Source of the DNA: Dehalococcoidia bacterium
GTDB lineage: Bacteria > Chloroflexota > Dehalococcoidia > Lucifugimonadales > JAGWBF01
Direction: 5' to 3'
DNA length: 64,000 bases
NCBI GenBank assembly: GCA_021295955.1
Contig: JAGWBJ010000005.1
Span: 19,276 to 83,275, forward strand
In this document: piece after piece, positions 4,284-37,666 of the stretch
How positions within the stretch are numbered: the stretch's first letter is position 1
Layout: each line of letters starts with the position of its first letter
The notes under the pieces: model-generated
Databases searched by the model: none
What the model was told of the DNA's origin: nothing
Seen by the model: only the letters and a program-made list of their open reading frames with translations
Position numbers and translations under genes: made by a program

Positions 4284-7200
4284 ATGCTGCGAGTCGGCGT
4301 CGATATCGGGGGTACCTTTACCGACCTGATGACCTTCGACGAGGAGGCGGGGACCGTTGCTCGGAACAAGGTCTTGACGACGCCCAGGGCGCCGGAGGAG
4401 GGGCTGCTGGAAGCCTGCCGGTCGGCGGGTGTGGAAGTGGAGGGGGTGTCCCACTTCGTCCACGGCACCACGCTGGTCACCAACCTGGTGATCGAGCGCC
4501 AGGGGGCCACGGTCGGGCTGATAACCACCAGGGGGTTCCGAGATATCCTGCTCTTCCAAACGGGCATGCGCGAGGAGAGCTTCGACCTGCAGTGGGAGCG
4601 CCGCAAGGCCCTGGTGCCCCGGCACCTGATCGTCGAAGTGTCCGAGAGGATGGGCAAGGAGGGGAAGCCCGTAGCCTCCCTCGACGAGGCCGAGGTCGCC
4701 CGGGCCGTCCATTACCTGGTGGCAAAGGGTGTCGACTCCATCGCCGTGTGCCTGTTCAACTCCTACGCCAACGGCCGGCATGAGATCGAGGCAGGCCGGA
4801 TCATCGCCCGCGAGGCGCCGCAGCTATACGTGTCGCTGTCCTGCCAGGTGGACCCCCGGATAAGGGAGTATCCCAGGGCCAGCACCACGGTGCTGAACTC
4901 CTACGCCATGCCCAGGGTGTACGGCTACGTGGACCGGCTGGACAGGGCCCTGGAGATCCAGCGGGGAATCAAGTACATGCACTCCGGCGGGGGTCTCATC
5001 TCCTCCACGGCGGCCCAGGAGCGGCCCATCGCCCTGGTGGAATCAGGGCCTGCCGCGGGGGTGCTGGCCTGCCGATACTTGGGCGAGAAGCTGGGCATCG
5101 AGCAGATTATCACCGCGGACATGGGGGGCACCAGCTTCGACGTCTGCATGATCCGCGACGGGGTGCCAGAGATAAAGGACACCACCGACGTGGAGTTCGG
5201 CATCCCGGTCCGGAGCGACAGCATCGACGTGGTGTCCATCGGGGCTGGGGGCGGCAGCATCGCTTGGATCGACGAGGGTGGAAGCCTAAGGGTCGGTCCT
5301 CGCAGCGCCGGCGCGGACCCCGGACCGGCCTGCTACGACTTTGGCGGCACGGAGCCTACCACCACCGACGCCAACATGATCCTGGGGACCCTCAACCCGG
5401 AGAACTTCCTGGGCGGCGGCTCCATGAAGCTGGCCCCGGACAGGTCGTGGCGGGCGATGCAGCCCATAGCCGACCACTTCGGCCTCACGGTGCCCGAGGC
5501 GGCCCAGGGCGTGTACAAGGTCGTCAACGCCAGCATGGCCCAGGCGGTGCGGCAGGTCACGGTGAAAAAGGGCATCGACCCCCGGGAGTTCACCCTCATG
5601 CCCTTCGGCGGGGCCGGGGCCCAGCACGCCATAGACGTGGCGAAGGAGCTTGACATAACCTCCGTGCTGTTCCCCGTCAACGCCAGCACGCTGTCGGCCC
5701 TGGGCATGATGACCGCCGACATCAGCTACAACGAGTCCCGGACGGTGTCGTCGCCCCTGGCGGAGCTGTCCATGGACCAGGTGGAGGCGGACTTCCGGGA
5801 GCTGGAGGCCCGGGCCCTGGGATACCTGCAGGCCGACGAGAGCCATGTCGTCGGCACCGGCGTCCAGTGGAAGGCCGACGTCCGATACGTGGGCCAGTCC
5901 TTCGAGCTGCGGGTCCCCCTGGCCAGGGGCAAGGTGACCAGGGAGCAGGTCTACCAGGAGTTCGAAAGGGTGTACCGGGAGAGGTACGGCATGGTGCTGG
6001 GCGACCCCGCCGAGGTGGTCAACATCCACGCCACGGCCACCGGATACATACAGTCGCTGGAGCTTCCCAAGAGCGGCGGCTCCGGCCGCGGCGCGCCCTC
6101 CCCCAAGGGGCACCGGAAGATGGCTTTCTACGACTCGCCGGTGCCCGTATACGACCGGGAGACGCTGGGACACGGCATGGTGCTGGAGAGCCCCTGCATC
6201 GTCGAGGAGGTGGACAACACCATCTTCCTGCCCCAGGGCTGCGAGTCCCGGGTGGACGAGTACGGCAACATAAGGACCACGGTGAGCTCCACTCCCCAGC
6301 AGGAGGACGCGGAGCTGGATCCCTTCACCGCCGAGATCATTCGCAGCTACCTGCTGTCCACGGTCGAAGAGATGATGAAGAGCACGACGGCTGTTGCCTA
6401 CTCCAGCACCTTCGCCGAGCGGTTGGACTTCACCGGCGCCATCTTCGACAGCCGGGGCCGGATGGTCGCCCAGGCCCAGGGAGTGCCGATCCACGCGGGC
6501 ACCATGACCGACTCCCTGGAGGCGATCATAGAGGCCTTCGACGGCAAGTTCGACGAAGGCGACGTGATGATCCTCAACGACGTCTACGCCGGCGGCTCAC
6601 ACCAGCCCGACGTCATGGTGGCGCGGCCCATCTTCCATGGAGACAGGCTGGTGGGCTACACGGCCAACCGGGGCCACTGGACGGACATCGGCGGCATGGC
6701 CGCCGGCGGCTTCTCGGGTACGGCCCGGCACGTCGTACAGGAGGCCCTCACCATTCCTCCCGCCAAGCTGTACGAGGCGGGGGTCCTCAACGCTACCGTA
6801 AGGGAGTTCATCCTCCGAAACGTGCGAGTGTCCCGGCAGATATGGGGCGACATCCAGTCCCAGATCACCGCCAACCTCACCGGCGAGCGGCGGGTCAAGG
6901 CGCTGGTCGACAAGTACGGGGTGGACATGGTGCTGGCGGGCATGGACGCCACCCTGGAGTACGGCCGCAGACGGTTCAGGCAGAAGCTGTTGGAGATGCC
7001 CGATGGCAAGGGCGCCGACCACGACTTCGTCGACACCGACGGGTACACCGACCGCATGTACAAGATCAACGTGGCGGTGGAGAAGAAGGGCGACAGGCTG
7101 ATGGTGGACTGCTCGGGCAGCTCCGACCAGGACTTCTCCATGGTCAACTGCAGCAAGGTGGTGGCCAAGGGGGCCATCTTCGTGGCGGTAATCTCCATGG

Positions 7201-14815: not shown

Positions 14816-15670
14816 CTACAGTACGCCCAGCTCCTCCAGGAACCTGGTGACCTCGGCGGCGCACTCCTGGGACCGGGCGTAGCCCAGGTCGTAGCTGGGC
14901 CCCTCCAGGGTCACAGTCCGGACGTTGGGGGAGTTGACCAGGGCCTCCCGCTCGTCTTCGGGAAGCAGCGCGTCACGGGTCCCCTCCAGGTAGAGGGTGG
15001 GCACTCCGATGTCCTTCAGCTCGGGGACCATGTCGACCGGCCCCATCCCGCGGTAGAACTCGGCCGCCAGCAGCGGGTCGTTCTGGGCGATCTGGTCGAC
15101 GTACCAGTCGACGTAGCCGGCGGGGGCTTCGCGCATCCGGGGGCGCGCCCGGACCGACACCTGGGCCCATGCCCGCATTCCCCTGGCCAGCATCAGGTCG
15201 ATGCTCCCCTGACCCTGCACCGTCTCCCCAGGCTCGAGGTCTGCGGCGTTCCTGTCCAGCTGAGACCGGCCGGGCCTCAGGGGGATGCTCATTATCACCA
15301 GGGCGTGCAACGCCTGGGGGGCCCTGGTGGCCAGGCTCAGCCCCGTCAACGCTCCCGTGGCCTCACCGATCCAGACGACCTTTCCCGTCTTCAGGTGCTC
15401 GAACAGGGCAAGGGCGTCCAGCAGCCTGGACTCGATGGAGTTCTTGAAGGTCTCGACGGGCACCCTGGAGAGGCCCAGGCCCCGGAGGTCGACGCGGGCG
15501 ACCTTGAGCCGCCGGGAGAGAAGGGGCACCCACTCGTACCACAGGTTGGAGTTCCTGGGATGGCCATGGCAGAGCACCGCCGTGGGCGCGTCCACCCATG
15601 GGTCCGTGAAGTCGTCGTACCGGTAGTAGAGCTGGGCGCCGCCGGGACCTCGATAGCTCTCCACGCTCAT
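14816..15670 (-). CDS. alpha/beta-fold hydrolase family protein (atypical nucleophile elbow)
   Basis: 284 aa with LCHGHPRNSNLWYEWVPLL...DLRGLGLS, typical of the fold. The expected GxSxG position reads GEATG. Confidence 0.75.
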   Translation of the reverse strand: MSVESYRGPGGAQLYYRYDDFTDPWVDAPTAVLCHGHPRNSNLWYEWVPLLSRRLKVARVDLRGLGLSRVPVETFKNSIESRLLDALALFEHLKTGKVVWIGEATGALTGLSLATRAPQALHALVIMSIPLRPGRSQLDRNAADLEPGETVQGQGSIDLMLARGMRAWAQVSVRARPRMREAPAGYVDWYVDQIAQNDPLLAAEFYRGMGPVDMVPELKDIGVPTLYLEGTRDALLPEDEREALVNSPNVRTVTLEGPSYDLGYARSQECAAEVTRFLEELGVL

Positions 15671-15815: not shown

Positions 15816-16035
15816 CCGGTATACAATTGCCGGGCCGCGGCTACGTGGAGCCCCGGTATACAATCGCCGGGCCGCGGCTACGTGGAGCCCCGGTATACAA
15901 TCGCCGGGCCGCGGCTACGCGGAGCCCCGGTATACGATTGCCGGGCCGCGGCTACGCGGAGCCCCGGTATACAATTGCCGGGCCGCGGCTACGCGGAGCC
16001 CCGGTATACAATCGCCCAGCCGCGGCTACGCGGAG
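15816..16035. repeat. tandem direct repeat, 37-bp unit x 5.9 copies (CCGGTATACAATYGCCGGGCCGCGGCTACGYGGAGCC)
   Basis: Unit starts at 15816, 15853, 15890, 15927, 15964 and 16001, with an exact 37-bp period and 0-3 substitutions per copy. It lies in the divergent intergenic region between 15670 (-) and 16050 (+). Confidence 0.97.
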
Positions 16036-16049
16036 AAGGAGGCAGCCCA

Positions 16050-16607
16050 ATGCCAGCGTCCCACCGGATCAAGATACAGCCCCTGACCGACGAGGCGTTT
16101 CGGCCCTTCGGCGAGGTCCTCAGCCGGAAGGAGTCTGAACCCTTCTTCCAGATGACCGACGGCAGGGTCCAGGGATGGAAAGCGGACTTCTCCTGCGAGG
16201 GTCCGACGGAGGTCGCCTATATGAAGGTGGACTTCCAGTCGTGGGTCGTGGAGGACATGGAGAGACACTTCCAGGTGACCCAGACTTTCATACCCCTGAA
16301 GGGGAAGCCGATGATCATGGTGGTTGCCCGGGCAACCGACCCCGACGACAGGGATGCCGTGCCGCCTCCCCAGGAGTACAGCGCCTTCTACATGGACGGC
16401 GCCCAGGGCGTGATGCTGGGGGTTGGGACGTGGCACGCCTCGGCCCGCCTGGCCCTCTACCCGCCCGACTGCGAGTTCGTCTACCTCTCCTCCAGCAACA
16501 CGACCCAGGACCTGAAGCGGGTCGCAGCGGAGGGAGGCGAGCCCAGGCTCAGCCAGGTGGTGAACTACCGGGAGCGGTTCGGCCAGGCCGTCGAGCCCGT
16601 GTGGTAG
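16050..16607 (+). CDS. ureidoglycolate lyase/hydrolase (AllA-like cupin) family protein
   Basis: ATG at 16050 follows GAAGGAGG. IKIQPLTDEAFRPFGEVL is the typical AllA-family N-terminus. The track ORF (from 15669) reads through the non-coding 37-bp array. Confidence 0.7.
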   Translation: MPASHRIKIQPLTDEAFRPFGEVLSRKESEPFFQMTDGRVQGWKADFSCEGPTEVAYMKVDFQSWVVEDMERHFQVTQTFIPLKGKPMIMVVARATDPDDRDAVPPPQEYSAFYMDGAQGVMLGVGTWHASARLALYPPDCEFVYLSSSNTTQDLKRVAAEGGEPRLSQVVNYRERFGQAVEPVW

Positions 16608-18979: not shown

Positions 18980-20122
18980 ATGGCAGAGAGCCCCCATCGT
19001 CAGGAGGCGGAGCATCACGACGATTCCGCCCATGATGATCCCTCAGGCCGCGCCCGTGCCGATCACGAAGGGCACGGCCACGACGAGCACGAGGGGCATG
19101 GCCATGCAGAGCACGAGGGGCACGGCCACGACGAGCACGAGGGCCACGGCCACGATGAGCACGAGGGCCACGACGAGCACGGTCACGCAGGGCACGACCA
19201 CGCCCACGACTTACGGGGCGCCAGCCGCCGCAGCCTGATCGTCGCCCTGGTGCTGATTAGCACCTACATGGTGGCGGAGGTGGTCGGCGGCGTCCTGTCA
19301 GGCAGCCTGGCGTTGCTGGCGGACGCCGGGCACATGCTCACCGACGCGGCGGCCATCACCATGGCCCTGGTGGCCATGTGGATTGCCCAGAAAGAGCCCT
19401 CGGTAGAGCGTACTTTCGGGTATCACCGCACCGAGATCCTCGCCGCGCTGGCCAACACCTTCGCCTTGTGGCTCATCGCCGGGTGGATCGTCTGGGAGGC
19501 CTACCACCGGGCCTTCAGGGAAGATGTCGAGGTGGTCGGCTTGCCGGTCCTCCTGGTAGGCATAGGCGGCTTCGTGATAAACGTGATCGCCGCATGGGTA
19601 CTGCACCGCTCCTCGGGGGAGAGCCTCAACGTGGAGGGCGCTTTCCAGCACGTGCTGGCGGACCTGCTGGGGTCCGTGGGCGTCATAATCTCTGCCGTAC
19701 TGATCATCGCATTCGAGTGGCACATAGCGGACCCGATTCTCAGCGTCGTCATCGCGGTCCTCATCGTGTACAACACCCGGAAGCTGATCGTCAACATACT
19801 TAATGTGCTGCTGGAGGGGAGCCCCGAGCGTATCGACGTTTACAAGCTGTGCCACGACATAGAGGAAATGGAAGGAGTTACCCTGATCCACGACGTTCAC
19901 GTCTGGACCATAACCTCAGGCAACGAGGCCTTCACCGCCCACGTGCTGTTGGACCCCGCCTACCAGGGCAACCTGGACGGGCTGATCAAAGGGATGCAAG
20001 ACCTGCTGCACAACGAGTATGGCATCGGCCACGCCACCATACAGGTGGAGCGGTCCGTGGAGGGTTGCACCGAGAACCACCACGTGGGCCACCTGCTGGC
20101 CTACGCCCGCTCTACGGGTTAA
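18980..20122 (+). CDS. cation diffusion facilitator (CDF) metal efflux transporter (CzcD/ZitB-like) with a His-rich N-terminal tail
   Basis: ATG at 18980 lies 6 nt after AGGAGG. CDF core motifs present (LLADAGHMLTDAAA, FGYHRTEILAALAN, HVLADLLGS, HDVHVWT). N-terminal HEGHGHDE octapeptide repeats. Confidence 0.92.
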   Translation: MAESPHRQEAEHHDDSAHDDPSGRARADHEGHGHDEHEGHGHAEHEGHGHDEHEGHGHDEHEGHDEHGHAGHDHAHDLRGASRRSLIVALVLISTYMVAEVVGGVLSGSLALLADAGHMLTDAAAITMALVAMWIAQKEPSVERTFGYHRTEILAALANTFALWLIAGWIVWEAYHRAFREDVEVVGLPVLLVGIGGFVINVIAAWVLHRSSGESLNVEGAFQHVLADLLGSVGVIISAVLIIAFEWHIADPILSVVIAVLIVYNTRKLIVNILNVLLEGSPERIDVYKLCHDIEEMEGVTLIHDVHVWTITSGNEAFTAHVLLDPAYQGNLDGLIKGMQDLLHNEYGIGHATIQVERSVEGCTENHHVGHLLAYARSTG

Positions 20123-20160
20123 GAGAGACCGCAGCGGGCCAGCCCGTTGCGGTCTGAGGC

Positions 20161-20207
20161 AAAAGCAAAAGCCCCGCCGGACTGCAAGTCCGGCGGGGCC
20201 TCTTTTC
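20161..20207. terminator. bidirectional intrinsic terminator between convergent genes
   Basis: A 13-bp perfect stem GCCCCGCCGGACT (20171-20183) / AGTCCGGCGGGGC (20187-20199) with a 3-nt loop, flanked by AAAAGCAAAA upstream and CTCTTTTC downstream. A second long hairpin lies at 20126-20155. Confidence 0.8.
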
Positions 20208-20224
20208 AGGTCGGAAGGCTTCGT

Positions 20225-20464
20225 CTAGTGGGCGTGGCCCGCGTGTTCGTGGACGTGGTGCTCGTGCTCGTCACACTCGTGAAGGTCGTGCACGTGCCCG
20301 GGCTCATCCCCGTGGTGCTCGTGGGTGTCGCACTCGTGGGAGAGATGGTCGTGGGACTCAGTATGATGCTCGTGGGCATCGCACTCGTGCTCGGCGTGCA
20401 TGTGGCCGGGTTCGTTACCGTGGTGTTCGTGGGTATCACACTCGTGGACGTCGTGTTTCTGCAA
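20225..20464 (-). CDS. histidine/cysteine-rich repeat protein, putative metal-binding (79 aa)
   Basis: TTG start at 20464 lies 10 nt after GGAGGT, and an in-frame stop sits just upstream. Four repeats begin HECD(T/A/E)HEHH. 27 His and 4 Cys in 79 residues. Confidence 0.65.
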   Translation of the reverse strand: MQKHDVHECDTHEHHGNEPGHMHAEHECDAHEHHTESHDHLSHECDTHEHHGDEPGHVHDLHECDEHEHHVHEHAGHAH

Positions 20465-20494
20465 CCTTGCTCATACCTCCTAAAGTGATACTCT

Positions 20495-20545
20495 ATTCTC
20501 AACTACGGATGGGTCGCATGTCAAGCACCTCGGGCCCATGCGACC
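20495..20545 (-). promoter_or_regulatory. candidate promoter with a flanking 9-bp inverted repeat (operator) for the His-rich gene
   Basis: On the minus strand: TTGACA (plus coordinates 20519-20524), an 18-nt spacer, GAGAAT (20495-20500). Inverted repeat GGTCGCATG (20512-20520) / CATGCGACC (20537-20545) brackets the -35. Confidence 0.4.
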
Positions 20546-30882: not shown

Positions 30883-32580
30883 CTAGGACAGGCCCACCGT
30901 GTTGCCGTCGGCGTCGACGTCGATGCGATGGGCGGCCATGTCCCGGCCCAGCCCGGGCATGGTGCTGATGTCCCCCGCCAGCGGGTACAGGAACCCTGCG
31001 CCGATGGAGGCCCGCACGTCCCGGATGGGGAAGAGGTAGTCCTTGGGCACGCCCTTCCACGAGGCCTCATGGGACAGGGACAGGGCGGTCTTGGCGATGC
31101 ACAGGGGCAGGTTGCCCCAGCCCAGGGCCTCGTAGCGGCGGATCTGCCGCTCCGCGGCCGGGTCGTAAGATGCCCCGTCGGCGTTGTACACCCTGGTCAC
31201 CAGGGCGTGGACCTTCTCCTTGATGGACGCGTCGTCCTCGTAGAGGAAGCGGAACTGGGAGGGCTGGGAGGCGGCCTGCCGGACCAGCTCGGCAAGCTCG
31301 GCGGCGCCCCTGCCGCCGTCGGCGAAGGCGGTGCTGGGGGCGCATCCCGCGGCCCCGGCTTCCAGGGCCTTCTCCCTCAGCAGGTCCACCTCCGCGTCGG
31401 TGTCTCCCTCGAACCGGTTTACCGCCACCACCACCGGCACCCCGAACTGCCGCGCGATCCCCACGGCCCACATCATGTTGGCCGCGCCCTTCTCCAGCGC
31501 GGGCAGATTCTCCTTGCCCAGCTCCTCGGGCAGCGGCCGGCCTGCGACCACGCGTCCCAGGCCCCCGTGCATCTTCAGGGCCCTCACGGTGCAGGTGACC
31601 ACGACGCAGCTTGGGCGCAGCCCAGATTGGCGGGCCACTATGTCCATGAACTTCTCCAGGCCGCAGTCGGCCCCGAACCCCGACTCGGTAACCACGTAGT
31701 CGGCCAGGCTCAGGGCGATGCGGTCCGCCAGCACCGAGTTGTTGCCCTGGGCGATATTGGCGAAGGGTCCCGCGTGGACCAGGCACGGTTGGCCCTCCAG
31801 GGTCTGCACCAGGTTGGGCTTGATGGCGTCCTTGAGGATCACCGTCATGGCCCCCGCGGCCCTGAGCTGCTCCACGTTGACCGGCTTACGGTCCCGGGTA
31901 TACCCGACGACGATGCGGGCCAGGCGCTCCCGCAGGTCCTTCTGGTCGCTGGTGAGGCCGATGATGGCCATGACCTCGGACGCGGCGGTGATGTCGAACC
32001 CCGTCTCCCGGGTGATCCCGTTGGTCCTGCCGCCCAGACCGGTGACGACGTTGCGAAGCACCCGGTCGTTCACGTCGATGACCCGCCGCCAGGTGACCGA
32101 CGCCGGGTCCATCTCCAGCGGGTTGCCGTGCATCAGGCTGGCGTCGAGGATGGCCGCCAGCAGGTTATGGGCCGCGCCCACCGCGTGGATGTCCCCCGTG
32201 AAGTGCAGGTTGATGTCCTCCATCGGGACCACCTGGGACCATCCGCCGCCGGTGCCTCCCCCCTTTATGCCGAACACGGGGCCCATGGAGGGCTCCCGGA
32301 TACACTCGATGACCCGCTCTCCCAGCGCGCCCAGGCCCTGGCTCAGCCCCGTGGTCGTGACCGTCTTCCCTTCGCCCAGGGGCGTGGGGGTGATCCCGGT
32401 GACCACCACCAGCTTGCCCTGGGGCCTGTCCTTCAGGCGCTCCAGGGAGTCCAGGGAAACCTTCGCCTTGTGACGGCCGTAGAGCTCCACCTCCTCGGGG
32501 AGCAGGCCCGCCTCCTCGGCCACCTGTAGGATGGGCTTGAGCGGGACGGACCGGGCGATCTCCAGGTCACTCGTCGGCAT
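30883..32580 (-). CDS. fhs: formate--tetrahydrofolate ligase
   Basis: 565 aa containing VTGITPTPLGEGKTVTTTGL, full length and colinear with Fhs. Confidence 0.95.
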   Translation of the reverse strand: MPTSDLEIARSVPLKPILQVAEEAGLLPEEVELYGRHKAKVSLDSLERLKDRPQGKLVVVTGITPTPLGEGKTVTTTGLSQGLGALGERVIECIREPSMGPVFGIKGGGTGGGWSQVVPMEDINLHFTGDIHAVGAAHNLLAAILDASLMHGNPLEMDPASVTWRRVIDVNDRVLRNVVTGLGGRTNGITRETGFDITAASEVMAIIGLTSDQKDLRERLARIVVGYTRDRKPVNVEQLRAAGAMTVILKDAIKPNLVQTLEGQPCLVHAGPFANIAQGNNSVLADRIALSLADYVVTESGFGADCGLEKFMDIVARQSGLRPSCVVVTCTVRALKMHGGLGRVVAGRPLPEELGKENLPALEKGAANMMWAVGIARQFGVPVVVAVNRFEGDTDAEVDLLREKALEAGAAGCAPSTAFADGGRGAAELAELVRQAASQPSQFRFLYEDDASIKEKVHALVTRVYNADGASYDPAAERQIRRYEALGWGNLPLCIAKTALSLSHEASWKGVPKDYLFPIRDVRASIGAGFLYPLAGDISTMPGLGRDMAAHRIDVDADGNTVGLS

Positions 32581-32727
32581 GGTTCTTGACTCCCTCTAAG
32601 CTACGGCCCAAGTGTATTGGCGTCGGACTCCGCCCCATAGCCGGCAGGCGCGTTCCCGGTAGATACGCCGCCTATCGGTCAGGCGGATTGCACCTGACCA
32701 TGATATACCAAAGAGGCCGCCCCAACG

Positions 32728-33612
32728 TCAAACGGCGGGGGGAGTCGAGCCGGCCGGGACATCCCCGGGGGGGCGGGCCGTGCGGCGCCTTCGGGACGCC
32801 CCGAACTGGCGTCTCAGGCCCGAGTAAACCAGGGCGGCGACGAAGAGGGCCGCCGACAGGAGGACCACGCTGGCGCCCGAGGAGACGTCGATCCACCAGC
32901 TCACGTATATGCCCGTCAACCCGCAGAATGCCCCCACGCCCGTGGACAGGACCACCATCCGGCGGAAGCTGTTGGTCAGGAGCCGCGCCACGATGGGGGG
33001 GATCACGATGGCCGCCGCGATGAGGGTGGCCCCCAGCACCTGCAGCGAGACTACGATGGTGGCTGCCAGCACGAGGGAGAACATGGCGTCTATCCAGCCG
33101 GTGGGCACGCCGTAGAACCGGGCCACCTCCTGGTCGAAGGTGGCGAAGAGCAGCAGCTTGAAGCCCAGGAAGACGATCACCACCGCGGCCGCGCTGACGG
33201 CCGCGATGGCCGCCAGGTCCCCCGGGGAGACCCCCAGGATGTTGCCGAAGAGGGCCGCCTCGAAGTCCCTGGTGAAGGTCTTGTACCGGCTGATAACGGC
33301 CACGCCGATGGCGAAGCTCGAGGTGGTTATGATGCCTATGGCCGCGTCGGCTCCGATCTGCCTCTTCCGGGTCGTGAGGGTGATGAGCAGGGCCGTCAGG
33401 AACCCCCAGATGCTGGCCCCCACGAAGAACCCCATGAAGGGTATCACGTAGCTGACCACGGCCCCCCCGAAGACCGCGTGGGCCATGCCGTGGCCGATGT
33501 ACGACATGCGCCGGAGGACTATGTAGACCCCCATCAGGCCGCACAGTCCGCCGGCCAGGGTCGTGGCCGCTATTCCCAGGACGAAGAAGTCGTACCGGAA
33601 GGGATCAAACAC
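32728..33612 (-). CDS. metal ABC transporter permease (ABC-3, ZnuB/MntB/TroC-like)
   Basis: 294 aa, highly hydrophobic, containing MSYIGHGMAHAVFGG. 8-nt overlap with the upstream ATPase gene. Confidence 0.88.
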   Translation of the reverse strand: MFDPFRYDFFVLGIAATTLAGGLCGLMGVYIVLRRMSYIGHGMAHAVFGGAVVSYVIPFMGFFVGASIWGFLTALLITLTTRKRQIGADAAIGIITTSSFAIGVAVISRYKTFTRDFEAALFGNILGVSPGDLAAIAAVSAAAVVIVFLGFKLLLFATFDQEVARFYGVPTGWIDAMFSLVLAATIVVSLQVLGATLIAAAIVIPPIVARLLTNSFRRMVVLSTGVGAFCGLTGIYVSWWIDVSSGASVVLLSAALFVAALVYSGLRRQFGASRRRRTARPPGDVPAGSTPPAV

Positions 33613-34483
33613 CGTCGGGTCCCTCCCCTATTCCCTCCTCCTGCTGTAGAGGCTGGCCCTCTCCGTTGGAGCCCCCGTTGGACCCAAAATGATGGGGGCT
33701 CTCGGCCACCAGGGTCATGCCCTGGTACCGGATCACGGGCATCTCGGCGCCGTACGTCAGGCGGAAGGTCTCCTCGGTGAACACCTGGGAGGGCGGCCCC
33801 TGGTCCACCAGTCGTCCGTTGAGGCACACCACCCACGGCAGGTGGGCGGCCACGGAGTTGATCTCGTGGGTCGTCATCACTATGGTCACGCCCTGGTGGT
33901 TCAGGTCGTGGAGGAGGTGCATCATGTCGTCCCGGGTCTTGATGTCCACCCCAGAGGTGGGCTCGTCCAGGAGCAGCAGCGACGGGCTGCTGACCAGGGC
34001 CCTGGCGAGGAACGCCCTCTGCTGCTGCCCGCCGGACAGCTCCTGGATGTGGCGCCCGGTCAGGTGGGAGATGCCCAGGCGCTCCAGCATCTCCAGGGCC
34101 AGCTTGCGCTCCCGGCGCCCGTACCACGGGAACAGCAGGTTCTCCATGGTGCGCCCCATCATGACGACCTCTTCCACCGTGACGGGGAAGTTCCAGTCGA
34201 TGGTCTCAAGCTGGGGCACGTAGCCGGCCCTGGGCCTGCGCCGGTCGGTGGGCGTCCCATCGACCAGGACCCTGCCCTCGTAGACATCCACCGCCCCCAG
34301 TATGGACCGCAGCAGGGTGGTCTTTCCCGACCCGCTGGGCCCCAGCAGCCCTACGAACTCGCCCGGGGCCACCGACAGGCTGACGTCGGACAGGACGGGC
34401 TGGCCGTCGTAGCCGCAGGTGAGGCCCTGGACCTCGATGATGGGCTCGGCGGCGGGGTGCTGGTGTGGAAACGGGTGAAGCAT
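33605..34483 (-). CDS. metal ABC transporter ATP-binding protein (ZnuC/MntA/TroB-like)
   Basis: Walker A GPSGSGKTTLL, signature LSGGQQQRAFLARAL, Walker B LLLLDEPTSGVD. Confidence 0.9.
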   Translation of the reverse strand: MLHPFPHQHPAAEPIIEVQGLTCGYDGQPVLSDVSLSVAPGEFVGLLGPSGSGKTTLLRSILGAVDVYEGRVLVDGTPTDRRRPRAGYVPQLETIDWNFPVTVEEVVMMGRTMENLLFPWYGRRERKLALEMLERLGISHLTGRHIQELSGGQQQRAFLARALVSSPSLLLLDEPTSGVDIKTRDDMMHLLHDLNHQGVTIVMTTHEINSVAAHLPWVVCLNGRLVDQGPPSQVFTEETFRLTYGAEMPVIRYQGMTLVAESPHHFGSNGGSNGEGQPLQQEEGIGEGPDGV

Positions 34484-34505
34484 CTGTATCCCCCTGTGAC
34501 TCGGG

Positions 34506-35525
34506 CTACTGGGGGTACCTTGCCTTGCTGGCGCCCTCGAACACGGGCCCGGGGTCGAACCCGGCCAGGGCGTCGGCGCTTCCTCCCAGGGCCCCGATCA
34601 TTACCTCCATGTTCTGCAGCATGAGGCCCAGGTACGAGTGCCTGGGACCGCCAGGCTCTCCCGGCAGGTCGTCGTCGGCAAGGCCGTCCACGAAGGCCGC
34701 GCCGCCCTCTTTGGCGATCCGCTCCATCACATCACTGGGGAACACCTCGGAGCCGAACACCGCCGGCACCCCCAGCTCTCCCACCTGGTCGATGAGCCGT
34801 CCCACCTCCCTGGCCGAGGGCTCGGAGAAGTCCGAGGGTTGGACGGCGCCGACCACCTCCATGCCGTAGCGGCCGGCGAAATAGGCCCACGAGTCGTGGT
34901 AGGTGAGGAGACGGCGGTTGGCGGCGGGGACCGTCTCCACGGCGGCGGCGATGCGTCCGTCCAGATCCTCTATGCGTGCCTCGAAGGCGTCGTAGTTTTC
35001 GCTGTAGTAGGCCTCGTTCCGCGGGTCCAGCCGCACCAGCTCGTCCCGGACCAGCTCGGCGTACCGGAGGCCGAGAAGCGGGTCCGGCCACAGGTGGGGG
35101 TTGGGATGCCCGCCGGACTCGGGAAAGGAGAAGTCGAACCGCCACTCCTCACGGGTGACCGTCCGCTCCCCCAGGGACAGAATGACGGCGTCGCTTCGCT
35201 TGCCTGCCTTTGCCAGCTCCAGGGTGGGCTCCTCCAGGAAGAGGCCGTTGAGGACTATGAGGTCCGCTTCGGCCAGGAGCCGGGACACCGAGGGGGCGGG
35301 CTCGAAGGTGTGGGAGTTGACCCCCTCGGGCACGACACCCTCCAGGTCTATCCGGGCCCCGCCGATGTTCTCGACGATGCTGGTGATGGGTGACACGGTG
35401 GTTATCACCTTCAGGGGGGCGGCGTCCGCCCCATCGCCTGGGGGCGGCGCCGTCGACTCGGCCCCGCAGCCCAGCAACGCCAGGAGCAGGAAGGGGACGA
35501 CGAATAGGGCCGGCCGGCGGATCAC
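34506..35525 (-). CDS. metal ABC transporter substrate-binding lipoprotein (ZnuA/TroA family)
   Basis: The GTG at 35525 gives (M)IRRPALFVVPFLLLALLGCGAES, a lipoprotein signal with a lipobox Cys. The track start (TTG at 35624) lies upstream of a good promoter -10 and is therefore unlikely. Confidence 0.85.
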   Translation of the reverse strand: MIRRPALFVVPFLLLALLGCGAESTAPPPGDGADAAPLKVITTVSPITSIVENIGGARIDLEGVVPEGVNSHTFEPAPSVSRLLAEADLIVLNGLFLEEPTLELAKAGKRSDAVILSLGERTVTREEWRFDFSFPESGGHPNPHLWPDPLLGLRYAELVRDELVRLDPRNEAYYSENYDAFEARIEDLDGRIAAAVETVPAANRRLLTYHDSWAYFAGRYGMEVVGAVQPSDFSEPSAREVGRLIDQVGELGVPAVFGSEVFPSDVMERIAKEGGAAFVDGLADDDLPGEPGGPRHSYLGLMLQNMEVMIGALGGSADALAGFDPGPVFEGASKARYPQ

Positions 35526-35603
35526 GATACGGTACGGCTTGGCGCTAGTCCGCAAATATAGCCTAATGCGATTATTGGCATGTGCAACGCCTTTCGCCTG
35601 CCG

Positions 35604-35631
35604 AGTATAGCACATAGCCTGCAATTGTCAA
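35604..35631 (-). promoter_or_regulatory. candidate promoter of the metal ABC operon
   Basis: On the minus strand: TTGACA (35626-35631), a 16-nt spacer ending in TGC, TATACT (35604-35609). The AT-rich palindrome TAATGCGATTA (35564-35574) lies in the predicted leader. Confidence 0.4.
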
Positions 35632-36825: not shown

Positions 36826-36867
36826 GGGGCCGCCTCAGACCGACCACGGACTCCCGCGAGGTGATGT

Positions 36868-37572
36868 TTGTACGCGCTGGTACTGGCCGGCGGCCGCGGA
36901 GAGCGGCTGCGCCCCCTGACCGACGACCTGCCCAAGCCTATGGTGCCCCTGCACGAGAGGCCCATCCTGTGGCACCAGGCACGGTGGCTTACGGCCGCGG
37001 GAGTCACCGATATCGTGTTCCTGGCCGGGTATCGCTGGGAGGCCATCCGGCGCTACTTTGGCGATGGAGCCGAGTTCGGCTTCCGCGCCCACTACAGCAT
37101 CGAGGAGACGCCTCTGGGCCGGGGTGGGGCCATACGGATGGGCATGGAGCGGGTGCCCGCGACCGAAACCGAGGTGGTCGTCACCAACGGAGACGTGGTC
37201 ACAAAAGAGGACCTGAGGAGCATCCACCGGCACTTCCTGGAGAGACGCAGGTCCGCGCCCGACCACCAGGCCACCATAATGGTGGTGCCCTTCGTCAGCC
37301 CCTACGGAGTGGTGGAGATGGACGGGAAGGGCGCCGTGACCGGGTTCGGCGAGAAGGCGGAGATGCCCTACTGGATCAACGGGGGAGTATACGTCCTGTC
37401 CCGGGACATCGAGGGCGCCCTTCCCGAGCTGGGCGACCACGAGGACACGACCTTCCCCTCTCTGGCGGCCAGGGGCCGGTTGACCGCGTTCAAGTCCCGG
37501 GCATTCTGGAGGAGCATAGACTCCTTCAAGGACCTGAGAGAGGCCGAAGAGGTGATGGGTGGCGGGGGATAG
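36868..37572 (+). CDS. nucleotidyltransferase (sugar-1-phosphate NTP-transferase family)
   Basis: YALVLAGGRGERLRPLTDDLPKPMVPL is the classic GxGxR NTP-transferase N-terminus. TTG start. The last 14 codons lie in the first copy of the 47-bp repeat. Confidence 0.85.
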   Translation: MYALVLAGGRGERLRPLTDDLPKPMVPLHERPILWHQARWLTAAGVTDIVFLAGYRWEAIRRYFGDGAEFGFRAHYSIEETPLGRGGAIRMGMERVPATETEVVVTNGDVVTKEDLRSIHRHFLERRRSAPDHQATIMVVPFVSPYGVVEMDGKGAVTGFGEKAEMPYWINGGVYVLSRDIEGALPELGDHEDTTFPSLAARGRLTAFKSRAFWRSIDSFKDLREAEEVMGGGG

Positions 37573-37666
37573 GCAAGGACCTGAGAGAGCCCGAGGAGGT
37601 GATGGGCGGCGGGGGATAGGCAAGGACCTGAGAGAGCCCGAAGAGGTGATGGGCGGCGGGGGATAG
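37527..37666. repeat. tandem direct repeat, 47-bp unit x 3 (CAAGGACCTGAGAGAGSCCGARGAGGTGATGGGYGGCGGGGGATAGG)
   Basis: Copies start at 37527, 37574 and 37621. Copy 1 contains the last 14 codons and the TAG stop (37570-37572) of the NTP-transferase gene. Copies 2 and 3 are intergenic. Confidence 0.95.

Follow-up and report, generated by a model that had tools for sequence, protein, structure and literature searches.

A conserved histidine- and cysteine-repeat protein encoded beside a ZitB/CzcD-like CDF exporter in Chloroflexota and Acidimicrobiia: a candidate cytosolic zinc binder

The stretch of DNA analysed here (hereafter the window: 64,000 nucleotides of contig JAGWBJ010000005.1, from a Dehalococcoidia bacterium) contains at positions 20225 to 20464 a short gene whose 79-residue product carries four copies of a HECDxHEHH module, and which we call the HECD gene after the start of that module. 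It converges on a gene for an exporter from the family of cation diffusion facilitators (CDF). The features of this small region are as follows.

18980..20122, plus strand: ZitB/CzcD-like CDF exporter (listed open reading frame [ORF] start, 18950)
19046..19202, plus strand: N-terminal tail of the CDF, cytosolic and His-rich, with 24-nt repeats encoding HEGHGHDE
20167..20203, both strands: GC-rich hairpin of 13-17 bp with T-runs on both strands, common to the HECD and CDF genes
20225..20464, minus strand: HECD-repeat gene, TTG start, 79 aa, four HECDxHEHH modules
20473-20471, minus strand: in-frame stop TGA, two codons 5' of the TTG
20475..20480, minus strand: Shine-Dalgarno sequence GGAGGT, 10 nt 5' of the TTG
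20495..20524, minus strand: promoter-like site TTGACA-18 nt-GAGAAT, 5' of the HECD gene

A preliminary description of this locus had proposed the TTG-initiated ORF of 79 residues, and re-reading the DNA returned an identical protein sequence; the GGAGGT and the in-frame stop that it had placed ahead of the start codon lie at 20480-20475 and 20473-20471, and its counts of 27 His, 4 Cys and four modules were reproduced. Histidine makes up 34% of the protein, which also contains 14 Glu and 8 Asp and has a predicted isoelectric point of 5.5. The near-absence of a hydrophobic core, likewise claimed at the outset, agrees with a grand average of hydropathy of -1.80 and the lack of any hydrophobic stretch, and no signal peptide or hydrophobic segment was found in the 79 residues. 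The longest His run is two, each module has just one Cys, and the modules form two di-modules (module-GxEPGHxHx-module) linked by TESHDHLS. The transporter on which the gene was said to converge is a protein with Cation_efflux and ZT_dimer domains, and the hairpin at 20167-20203, described as a shared bidirectional terminator, scores as a terminator on either strand. Among the loci that we compared, those nearest to the window locus (L012, L043 and L049) have the promoter-like site at the same position, and it is present as TTGACA...TACGAT in L039 and L050. An inverted repeat in the window promoter, GGTCGCATG-N16-CATGCGACC, was considered as an operator and rejected because it is not kept in L012, L043 and L049. 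Rfam returned no RNA family in the window.

The HECD ORF is a real, conserved gene, far beyond chance. A pattern scan of the GTDB collection, with one genome per species, found at least 263 stretches that encode relatives, and the best 80 of these (L012-L091) are the loci on which the counts below are based. In 29 orthologues of identical length, third codon positions are 4.3 times as diverse as first and second positions, and the ratio of nonsynonymous to synonymous polymorphism (pN/pS) of the His frame is 0.115, vs. 3.2, 2.8 and 2.5 for three other largely open frames, among them a Val-rich antisense ORF (20147..20488). Most of the 80 loci have a ribosome-binding site (RBS) of the GGAGG/AGGAG type 5-10 nt before a start codon that itself mostly lies 5-10 residues ahead of the first module, and 77 of 81 loci carry, within 130 nt of the stop codon, a hairpin with an energy of -21 kcal/mol or lower. 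The four modules of the window gene differ from one another mainly at synonymous third positions, and Tandem Repeats Finder barely scored the gene as a DNA repeat, which together indicate that the repeats are old and have been held constant at the protein level. The refuting case envisaged in the preliminary description, i.e., a chance ORF without conserved homologues, fails against these numbers.

What is conserved within the family is a precise module. Only about 13 of 372 copies deviate from the nine-residue HECDxHEHH, in which position 5 is the sole freely varying one (T, G, E or D). Three types of linker occur (GDEPGHVHDx, AHVHDx and AExHDHDx), and since all of them end in HxHDx, the true repeat unit is HxHDx-HECDxHEHH. 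Most commonly there are four modules, which form two di-modules around a Pro-Gly linker; proteins with 2, 3, 7, 8 and 10 modules were also found, so that the family ranges from 2 to 10 modules and from 43 to 170 aa. That Glu and Asp are invariant beside the His and Cys of each module speaks for defined sites of coordination, as opposed to a composition that is simply rich in His. The 79 residues include 31 His and Cys ligands, conceivably enough for about six to eight tetrahedral sites per protein. AlphaFold2, run on a 14-row alignment, predicted no secondary structure (mean predicted local distance difference test score, pLDDT, 49), in line with the intrinsic disorder that had been supposed; such a prediction is consistent with an apo protein that would become ordered only upon binding metal, and nothing in it points to any fold. 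In one locus (L035, 6018-6620), two four-module HECD genes lie in tandem between znuABC and a convergent CDF gene.

The exporter next to the window gene belongs by sequence to the zinc-type branch of its family. Its translation starts probably at ATG 18980, which follows AGGAGGTG, rather than at the listed ATG 18950: The upstream peptide 'CRRCP', seemingly conserved in relatives, is the RBS read as protein. The protein is 380-390 aa long and matches Pfam Cation_efflux with 152 bits and ZT_dimer with 35 bits. Its best NCBIfam model is ZitB, with 263.7 bits (vs. 95.3 for DmeF), a score under the 408-bit cut-off that makes it ZitB-like and not an equivalog. As read from the translation, transmembrane segments 2 and 5 carry HMLTD and HVLAD, respectively, both of the form HxxxD, and such an HD-HD site is typical of zinc-type CDFs. 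The protein thus has both the domains and the HD-HD site of the ZitB/CzcD/ZnT group. Its C-terminal motif is EGCTENHHVGHL, and the conserved C-terminal motif of the subfamily is EGCTE(N/D)HHVGHL. All partner CDFs have long cytosolic N-terminal tails of His/Asp repeats (HDHDAHAG, HEGHGHDE and others) with 6-71 His; these tails (L009-L091 and the window) evolve fast, and their length differs even among close relatives.

The association with a CDF exporter, noted originally from a single locus, recurs throughout the family. A ZitB/CzcD-like CDF gene lies within 1.6 kb of the HECD gene in 65 of the 80 species-level loci, at a median gap of about 114 nt, and 70 of the 80 contain CDF or Znu genes. 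The two genes are convergent in 54 of the 65 linked loci; in nine the HECD gene precedes the CDF gene on the same strand, and in two it follows. Moreover, in two Acidimicrobiia an HECD di-module (HECDTHEHH-GDxPxHVHDP-HECDxHEHH) is encoded inside the N-terminal tail of a 408-aa CDF (L058, 4737..5963; L081, 3533..2307), and in L058 a free four-module HECD gene lies 38 nt downstream of the fused one on the same strand. These fusions are a Rosetta-stone type of link between the HECD module and the exporter. Further evidence comes from the L001-L005 lineage, whose flank holds Fur and ZnuABC genes. In L002-L005 the neighbouring CDF is cut down to a 119-aa remnant consisting of ZT_dimer only (6235-6594 in L002), and the HECD gene (6001-6132) keeps two modules, one of which has its Cys changed to Tyr (HEYDTHKHH); in L001 (6001-6255) the 3' end of the HECD gene is replaced beside transposase genes of the IS1595 and IS4 types. 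We count this apparent co-decay in favour of a partnership between the two proteins.

Genes for zinc uptake are often close by as well. ZnuA or ZnuB genes were found in 19 of the 80 loci, and in nine loci (L035, L036, L060, L062, L066, L069, L074, L088 and L089) znuA(C)B directly precedes the HECD gene on the same strand. In L002-4 and L059, Fur-family genes together with ZnuABC adjoin it. The ZnuA proteins linked to HECD genes have His/acid-rich loops, a mark of zinc-specific ZnuA; the window's own, distant ZnuA-like gene encodes none. Clustering of all neighbouring ORFs recovered only the CDF and Znu genes, lineage-specific synteny (a thiamine pyrophosphate enzyme) and the trio described next, with no regulator of the ArsR or MerR type.

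That trio encodes a STAS protein, a response-regulator-SpoIIE (PP2C) phosphatase and a HATPase_c_2 kinase, i.e., a partner-switching set, and recurs beside the HECD-CDF pair in L010, L033, L045, L055, L056, L065, L068, L071, L078, L081, L086, L087 and L091. It occurs in Acidimicrobiia as well as in genomes of Tepidiformaceae/Anaerolineae.

Nearly all of the 80 loci come from metagenome-assembled genomes. Most belong to Dehalococcoidia, SAR202 or other Chloroflexota, with a few from Tepidiformaceae and Anaerolineaceae, and about 15 belong to Acidimicrobiia (Actinomycetota), including Candidatus Spongiisocius and Spongiisociaceae. Of the source assemblies, MPMM bin22 and MPNA bin76 were binned from symbionts of Aplysina aerophoba, a sponge (PMC5649159). 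Sponges are also suggested by the names of many further records (RHO, IRC, Spongiisocius), and the family thus appears to reside mostly in bacteria associated with marine sponges, a habitat that for most genomes is read from the name of the record. Partner CDFs of Acidimicrobiia are 66-70% identical to those of some Chloroflexota, whereas those of distant Chloroflexota are 55-58% identical to the window CDF. These pairwise comparisons suggest that the HECD-CDF gene pair has moved between phyla.

From this comparative genomics, on which all of our functional statements rest, we infer metal binding, the identity of the metal and hand-off to the transporter. We propose that the HECD protein is a cytosolic binder of Zn(II) at multiple sites that works with the His-tailed CDF exporter, as its buffer or as its hand-off partner, and we put the probability of this proposal at about one half. 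The protein would be small, cytoplasmic, unstructured in the absence of metal and built only of metal-ligand modules. It would bind several divalent ions, of which Zn(II) is the most probable and Cd or Co also possible; the ligands would be the imidazoles of His, the thiolate of the one Cys in each module and the carboxylates of Asp and Glu. Paired with the neighbouring ZitB/CzcD-type exporter, it may represent the separately encoded counterpart of a metal-collecting module that a few genomes carry within the N-terminal tail of the exporter itself. Its role would be to buffer cytosolic zinc and to pass it on to the exporter, perhaps after accepting some from ZnuABC.

Zinc is favoured over other metals by three features of the linked loci: a ZitB-like CDF with an HD-HD site, ZnuABC systems with His-rich ZnuA loops, and Fur genes. 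The preliminary description had inferred a metal buffer or metallochaperone for Zn, Ni, Co or Cu; those parts of it that could be checked were all borne out, and its range of metals is narrowed towards Zn(II) by this context. On the other side of the balance, with a single Cys in each module the metal may yet be Ni, Co or Cu. Several further observations weigh against our proposal. Fifteen of the 80 loci have no adjacent CDF gene, and in the five of these that were sampled, the neighbours with an assignable family are unrelated to metals (i.e., housekeeping genes). The commonest layout of the two genes is convergent and not operonic. The tail of the window CDF has no HECD module, and the module is shared in only two of about 68 partner CDFs. 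Finally, the order znuB-HECD and the Fur-type palindromes described below fit a role under low zinc at least as well as one in efflux.

A more ambitious form of the proposal, which we consider less likely than not, is that the CDF exporter has in the HECD protein a dedicated zinc metallochaperone of the cytosol, the first of its kind, which docks Zn on the exporter's His-rich tail, and that the two genes have spread as a unit, horizontally, between Chloroflexota and Acidimicrobiia that live as sponge symbionts, adapting them to the metal regime of the host. Zinc in the cytosol is almost entirely chelated, and the HxHDxHECDxHEHH motif would be what collects this chelated zinc. Sponges, for their part, are known metal accumulators.

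Small cytosolic metal-binding proteins rich in His and Cys are already known as a kind, and the HECD protein is best placed by comparison with them. Neither Pfam nor NCBIfam gave a family at E<=1 for the 79-aa protein, the PDB holds no sequence relative at E<=10, and literature searches in the library at hand by motif strings returned no paper and by topic no description of the family. BLASTP against Hpn gave no local alignment at E<=100, and against SmtA an E of 22, i.e., no similarity. It therefore appears that neither the family and its motif nor its near-obligate pairing with a CDF or its fusion to one has been described, in keeping with the earlier remark that the repeat was not recognised as a described family; the Hpn-like alternative, which would have cost the protein only its novelty, drew no support from the sequence comparison.

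Hpn, a Ni-binding protein of 60 aa with 28 His and 4 Cys, and the Hpn-like protein serve Helicobacter pylori in Ni storage and detoxification. They resemble the HECD protein in being small and cytosolic, in their four Cys and lack of a hydrophobic core, in a His content of about one-third to one-half, and presumably in multi-ion binding and disorder of the apo form. However, Hpn carries poly-His runs and EEGCC motifs instead of a fixed nine-residue module, it is not known to be paired with a CDF or to occur outside Helicobacter, and the context of the HECD gene points to Zn and not to Ni. The metallothioneins SmtA and BmtA (Metallothio_Pro) are likewise small cytosolic buffers or stores, in their case of zinc, but Cys dominates their composition: SmtA has a Cys9His2 cluster and about 9 Cys in about 55 aa, whereas the His:Cys ratio of the HECD protein is about 7:1 (27 vs. 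4) and its acidic residues are invariant. In marine Synechococcus, a metallothionein is under the same Zur that represses znuABC (PMC9337993), a logic that the genomic layout of the Fur-ZnuABC-HECD-CDF islands resembles.

Two other systems bear on the relation between protein and exporter. Copper chaperones of the CopZ/Atx1 type share a module with the cytosolic N-terminal domains of the exporter CopA; similarly, the HECD protein is encoded beside an exporter (within 1.6 kb in 65 of the 80 loci), and it shares that exporter's cytosolic module in L058 and L081, with no HECD motif in the window CDF or in the other partner CDFs examined. Fold, motif and chemistry, however, show no relation (ferredoxin-like CxxC as opposed to a disordered HECDxHEHH repeat), the transporter is a P-type ATPase as opposed to a CDF antiporter, and the metal is presumably a different one. 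His-rich segments also exist within CDF/ZnT transporters themselves (e.g., the His-loop of ZnT7 and the termini of CzcD and ZitB), where a role in recruiting Zn and shuttling it to the site of transport has been proposed (PMC10617992), and the partner CDFs all bear such tails. Unlike the HECD protein, which is separately encoded, near-invariant and contains Cys, these segments are parts of the transporter and poorly conserved, of low complexity. The only accepted bacterial Zn chaperones are the COG0523 proteins, with ZagA as the cited case (PMC10617992). Members of this group (ZagA, ZigA, YeiR, ZNG1) resemble the HECD protein as Zur-linked cytosolic zinc handlers, often with His-rich stretches, but they are GTPases of roughly 300-400 aa that feed client enzymes during starvation, whereas the HECD protein lacks an NTPase domain, and its linkage is mainly to an exporter.

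The alternative that survives best, though we consider it unlikely, assigns the HECD protein to a Zur regulon and to low zinc: It would be a cytosolic reserve, or an acceptor that distributes zinc from ZnuABC to zinc enzymes, and adjacency to the CDF would merely reflect a shared island of zinc-homeostasis genes. The same-strand order after znuA(C)B in nine loci speaks for this view, as does the scan of two Acidimicrobiia loci, L069 and L074, which showed neither a promoter nor a terminator between znuB and the HECD gene. A further argument is the distribution of exact GATAC-N(1-9)-GTATC palindromes, of which there are 19 in 1.1 Mb of loci vs. about 5 expected (an estimate from base composition), none of them inside a long coding gene. 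Four stand upstream of fur in L001-4, and most of the rest stand upstream of the HECD gene (L013, L026-28, L034, L063, L064, L067, L073, L079 and L080); three overlap the RBS (L017, L019 and L020), and one lies just downstream of the HECD gene (L083); copies of the 6-1-6 form with one mismatch occur immediately upstream of znuA in L036 and L074. Palindromes of the type GATACT-N-AGTATC are thus a possible Zur box in these members of Chloroflexota and Acidimicrobiia, and their positions suggest that in several lineages the HECD gene is under a Fur-family regulator, presumably Zur. A search for the longest substrings common to the upstream regions of znuA or fur and those of HECD genes yielded nothing convincing.

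Several observations stand against the low-zinc alternative. The spacing of the box differs by lineage (6-1-6, 6-4-6 or 6-7-6, i.e., a spacer of 1, 4 or 7), and the HECD genes of L063, L073 and L080 have their box in common with a divergently oriented gene for formate-tetrahydrofolate ligase (FTHFS). The 64-kb window has no such box. Adjacency to a CDF (65 of 80 loci) is far commoner than adjacency to Znu genes (19 of 80), and it is to the exporter, not the importer, that the HECD module is fused. Moreover, although Zur in other bacteria controls uptake genes together with a metallothionein or an exporter, it can repress the former and also activate the latter (PMC11077047; PMC9337993). A Zur box by itself thus cannot tell low-zinc from high-zinc expression, and since Zur can activate at high zinc, the direction of the response is left unsettled by the box.

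The window itself holds a ZnuA/ABC_tran/ABC-3 uptake operon (32728..35627, minus strand), situated next to an FTHFS gene (30883..32595, minus strand). Its ZnuA has no His-rich loop and may belong to a system of the Mn/Fe type. FTHFS is the upstream neighbour of the HECD gene in L009 and L063 as well.

A regulatory subunit or sensor is an improbable reading of the same data. Here the HECD protein would bind the CDF in a zinc-dependent manner and gate the exporter rather than carry its metal, for which the linkage and fusions serve equally well as evidence; for the His-rich loops and tails of CDFs, Zn recruitment and the orchestration of conformational change have been proposed (PMC10617992). 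Nothing specific supports such gating, however, and a module number that varies from 2 to 10 suits a capacity device, i.e., a buffer or store, better than a stoichiometric regulator.

Less probable still is a store or detoxifier of Ni and Co (or Cu), comparable to Hpn of Helicobacter and unrelated to zinc. The composition of the protein is Hpn-like (small, cytosolic, 34% His and four Cys), and CDFs of the HD-HD type can export Co or Cd too. Nevertheless, the protein does not resemble Hpn in sequence, the score of the partner CDF is far higher on ZitB than on the Co/Ni exporter DmeF, and the linked uptake genes are ZnuABC, with zinc-type ZnuA loops, plus Fur-family genes; no genes for Ni/Co uptake, urease or hydrogenase are among the conserved neighbours.

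That the sequence is without function, whether as a chance ORF in CAC/GTG-rich DNA, as a decayed fragment of a CDF tail or as the precursor peptide of a modified metallophore, is very remote: The antisense and +1 frames are open too, gene callers usually miss the gene and the exact window protein has no database record, but purifying selection is confined to the His frame, a result that essentially refutes this idea, the Shine-Dalgarno sequence, start and terminator recur across loci, relatives span two phyla in at least 263 stretches, and no genes for maturation enzymes recur beside the HECD gene. A leader peptide or attenuator was rejected because the gene is followed by a terminator of its own and, in most loci, by no gene in the same direction, as was the precursor of a ribosomally synthesized and post-translationally modified peptide, whose maturation genes do not recur.

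The route by which zinc is delivered to CDF/ZnT exporters has yet to be settled, and evidence for zinc metallochaperones is, according to a paper from the CDF field, very limited (PMC10617992). The HECD family offers a concrete and readily expressed candidate partner of 43-170 aa, and if it proved to be a true CDF zinc chaperone, it would address this recognised gap (PMC10617992). Conserved linkage, a natural fusion and variants with 2-10 modules make the question of zinc delivery directly testable. In addition, the family contributes an apparently undescribed metal-binding motif and points to a trait of metal homeostasis common to two phyla of sponge symbionts.

The family is largely missed by gene callers and protein databases. 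A word-indexed protein search found 24 unnamed proteins, and a profile run against 1.84 billion cluster representatives retrieved 28 clusters, none of them longer than 133 aa, vs. the at least 263 stretches recognised at the DNA level. Among the clusters checked, the sole source name was 'hypothetical protein', and it belonged to a mis-clustered, unrelated sequence. This 419-aa sequence (P0048), which has no HECD module, is placed in the 90% identity cluster of a 53-aa member (P0009), which looks like a clustering artefact of the database.

Two further arrays of tandem repeats lie elsewhere in the window. At 15816-16035, a 37-nt unit, CCGGTATACAATCGCCGGGCCGCGGCTACGCGGAGCC, is repeated 5.9 times head-to-tail with a 95% match, between a hydrolase-like ORF (14816..15670, minus strand) and a ureidoglycolate lyase gene (16026..16607, plus strand); a CRISPR-like nature was ruled out, since there are no spacers. 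At 37527-37666, a 47-nt unit occurs three times, again with a 95% match, overlapping the 3' end of a nucleotidyl-transferase gene (36865..37572, plus strand) and running past the end of that gene.

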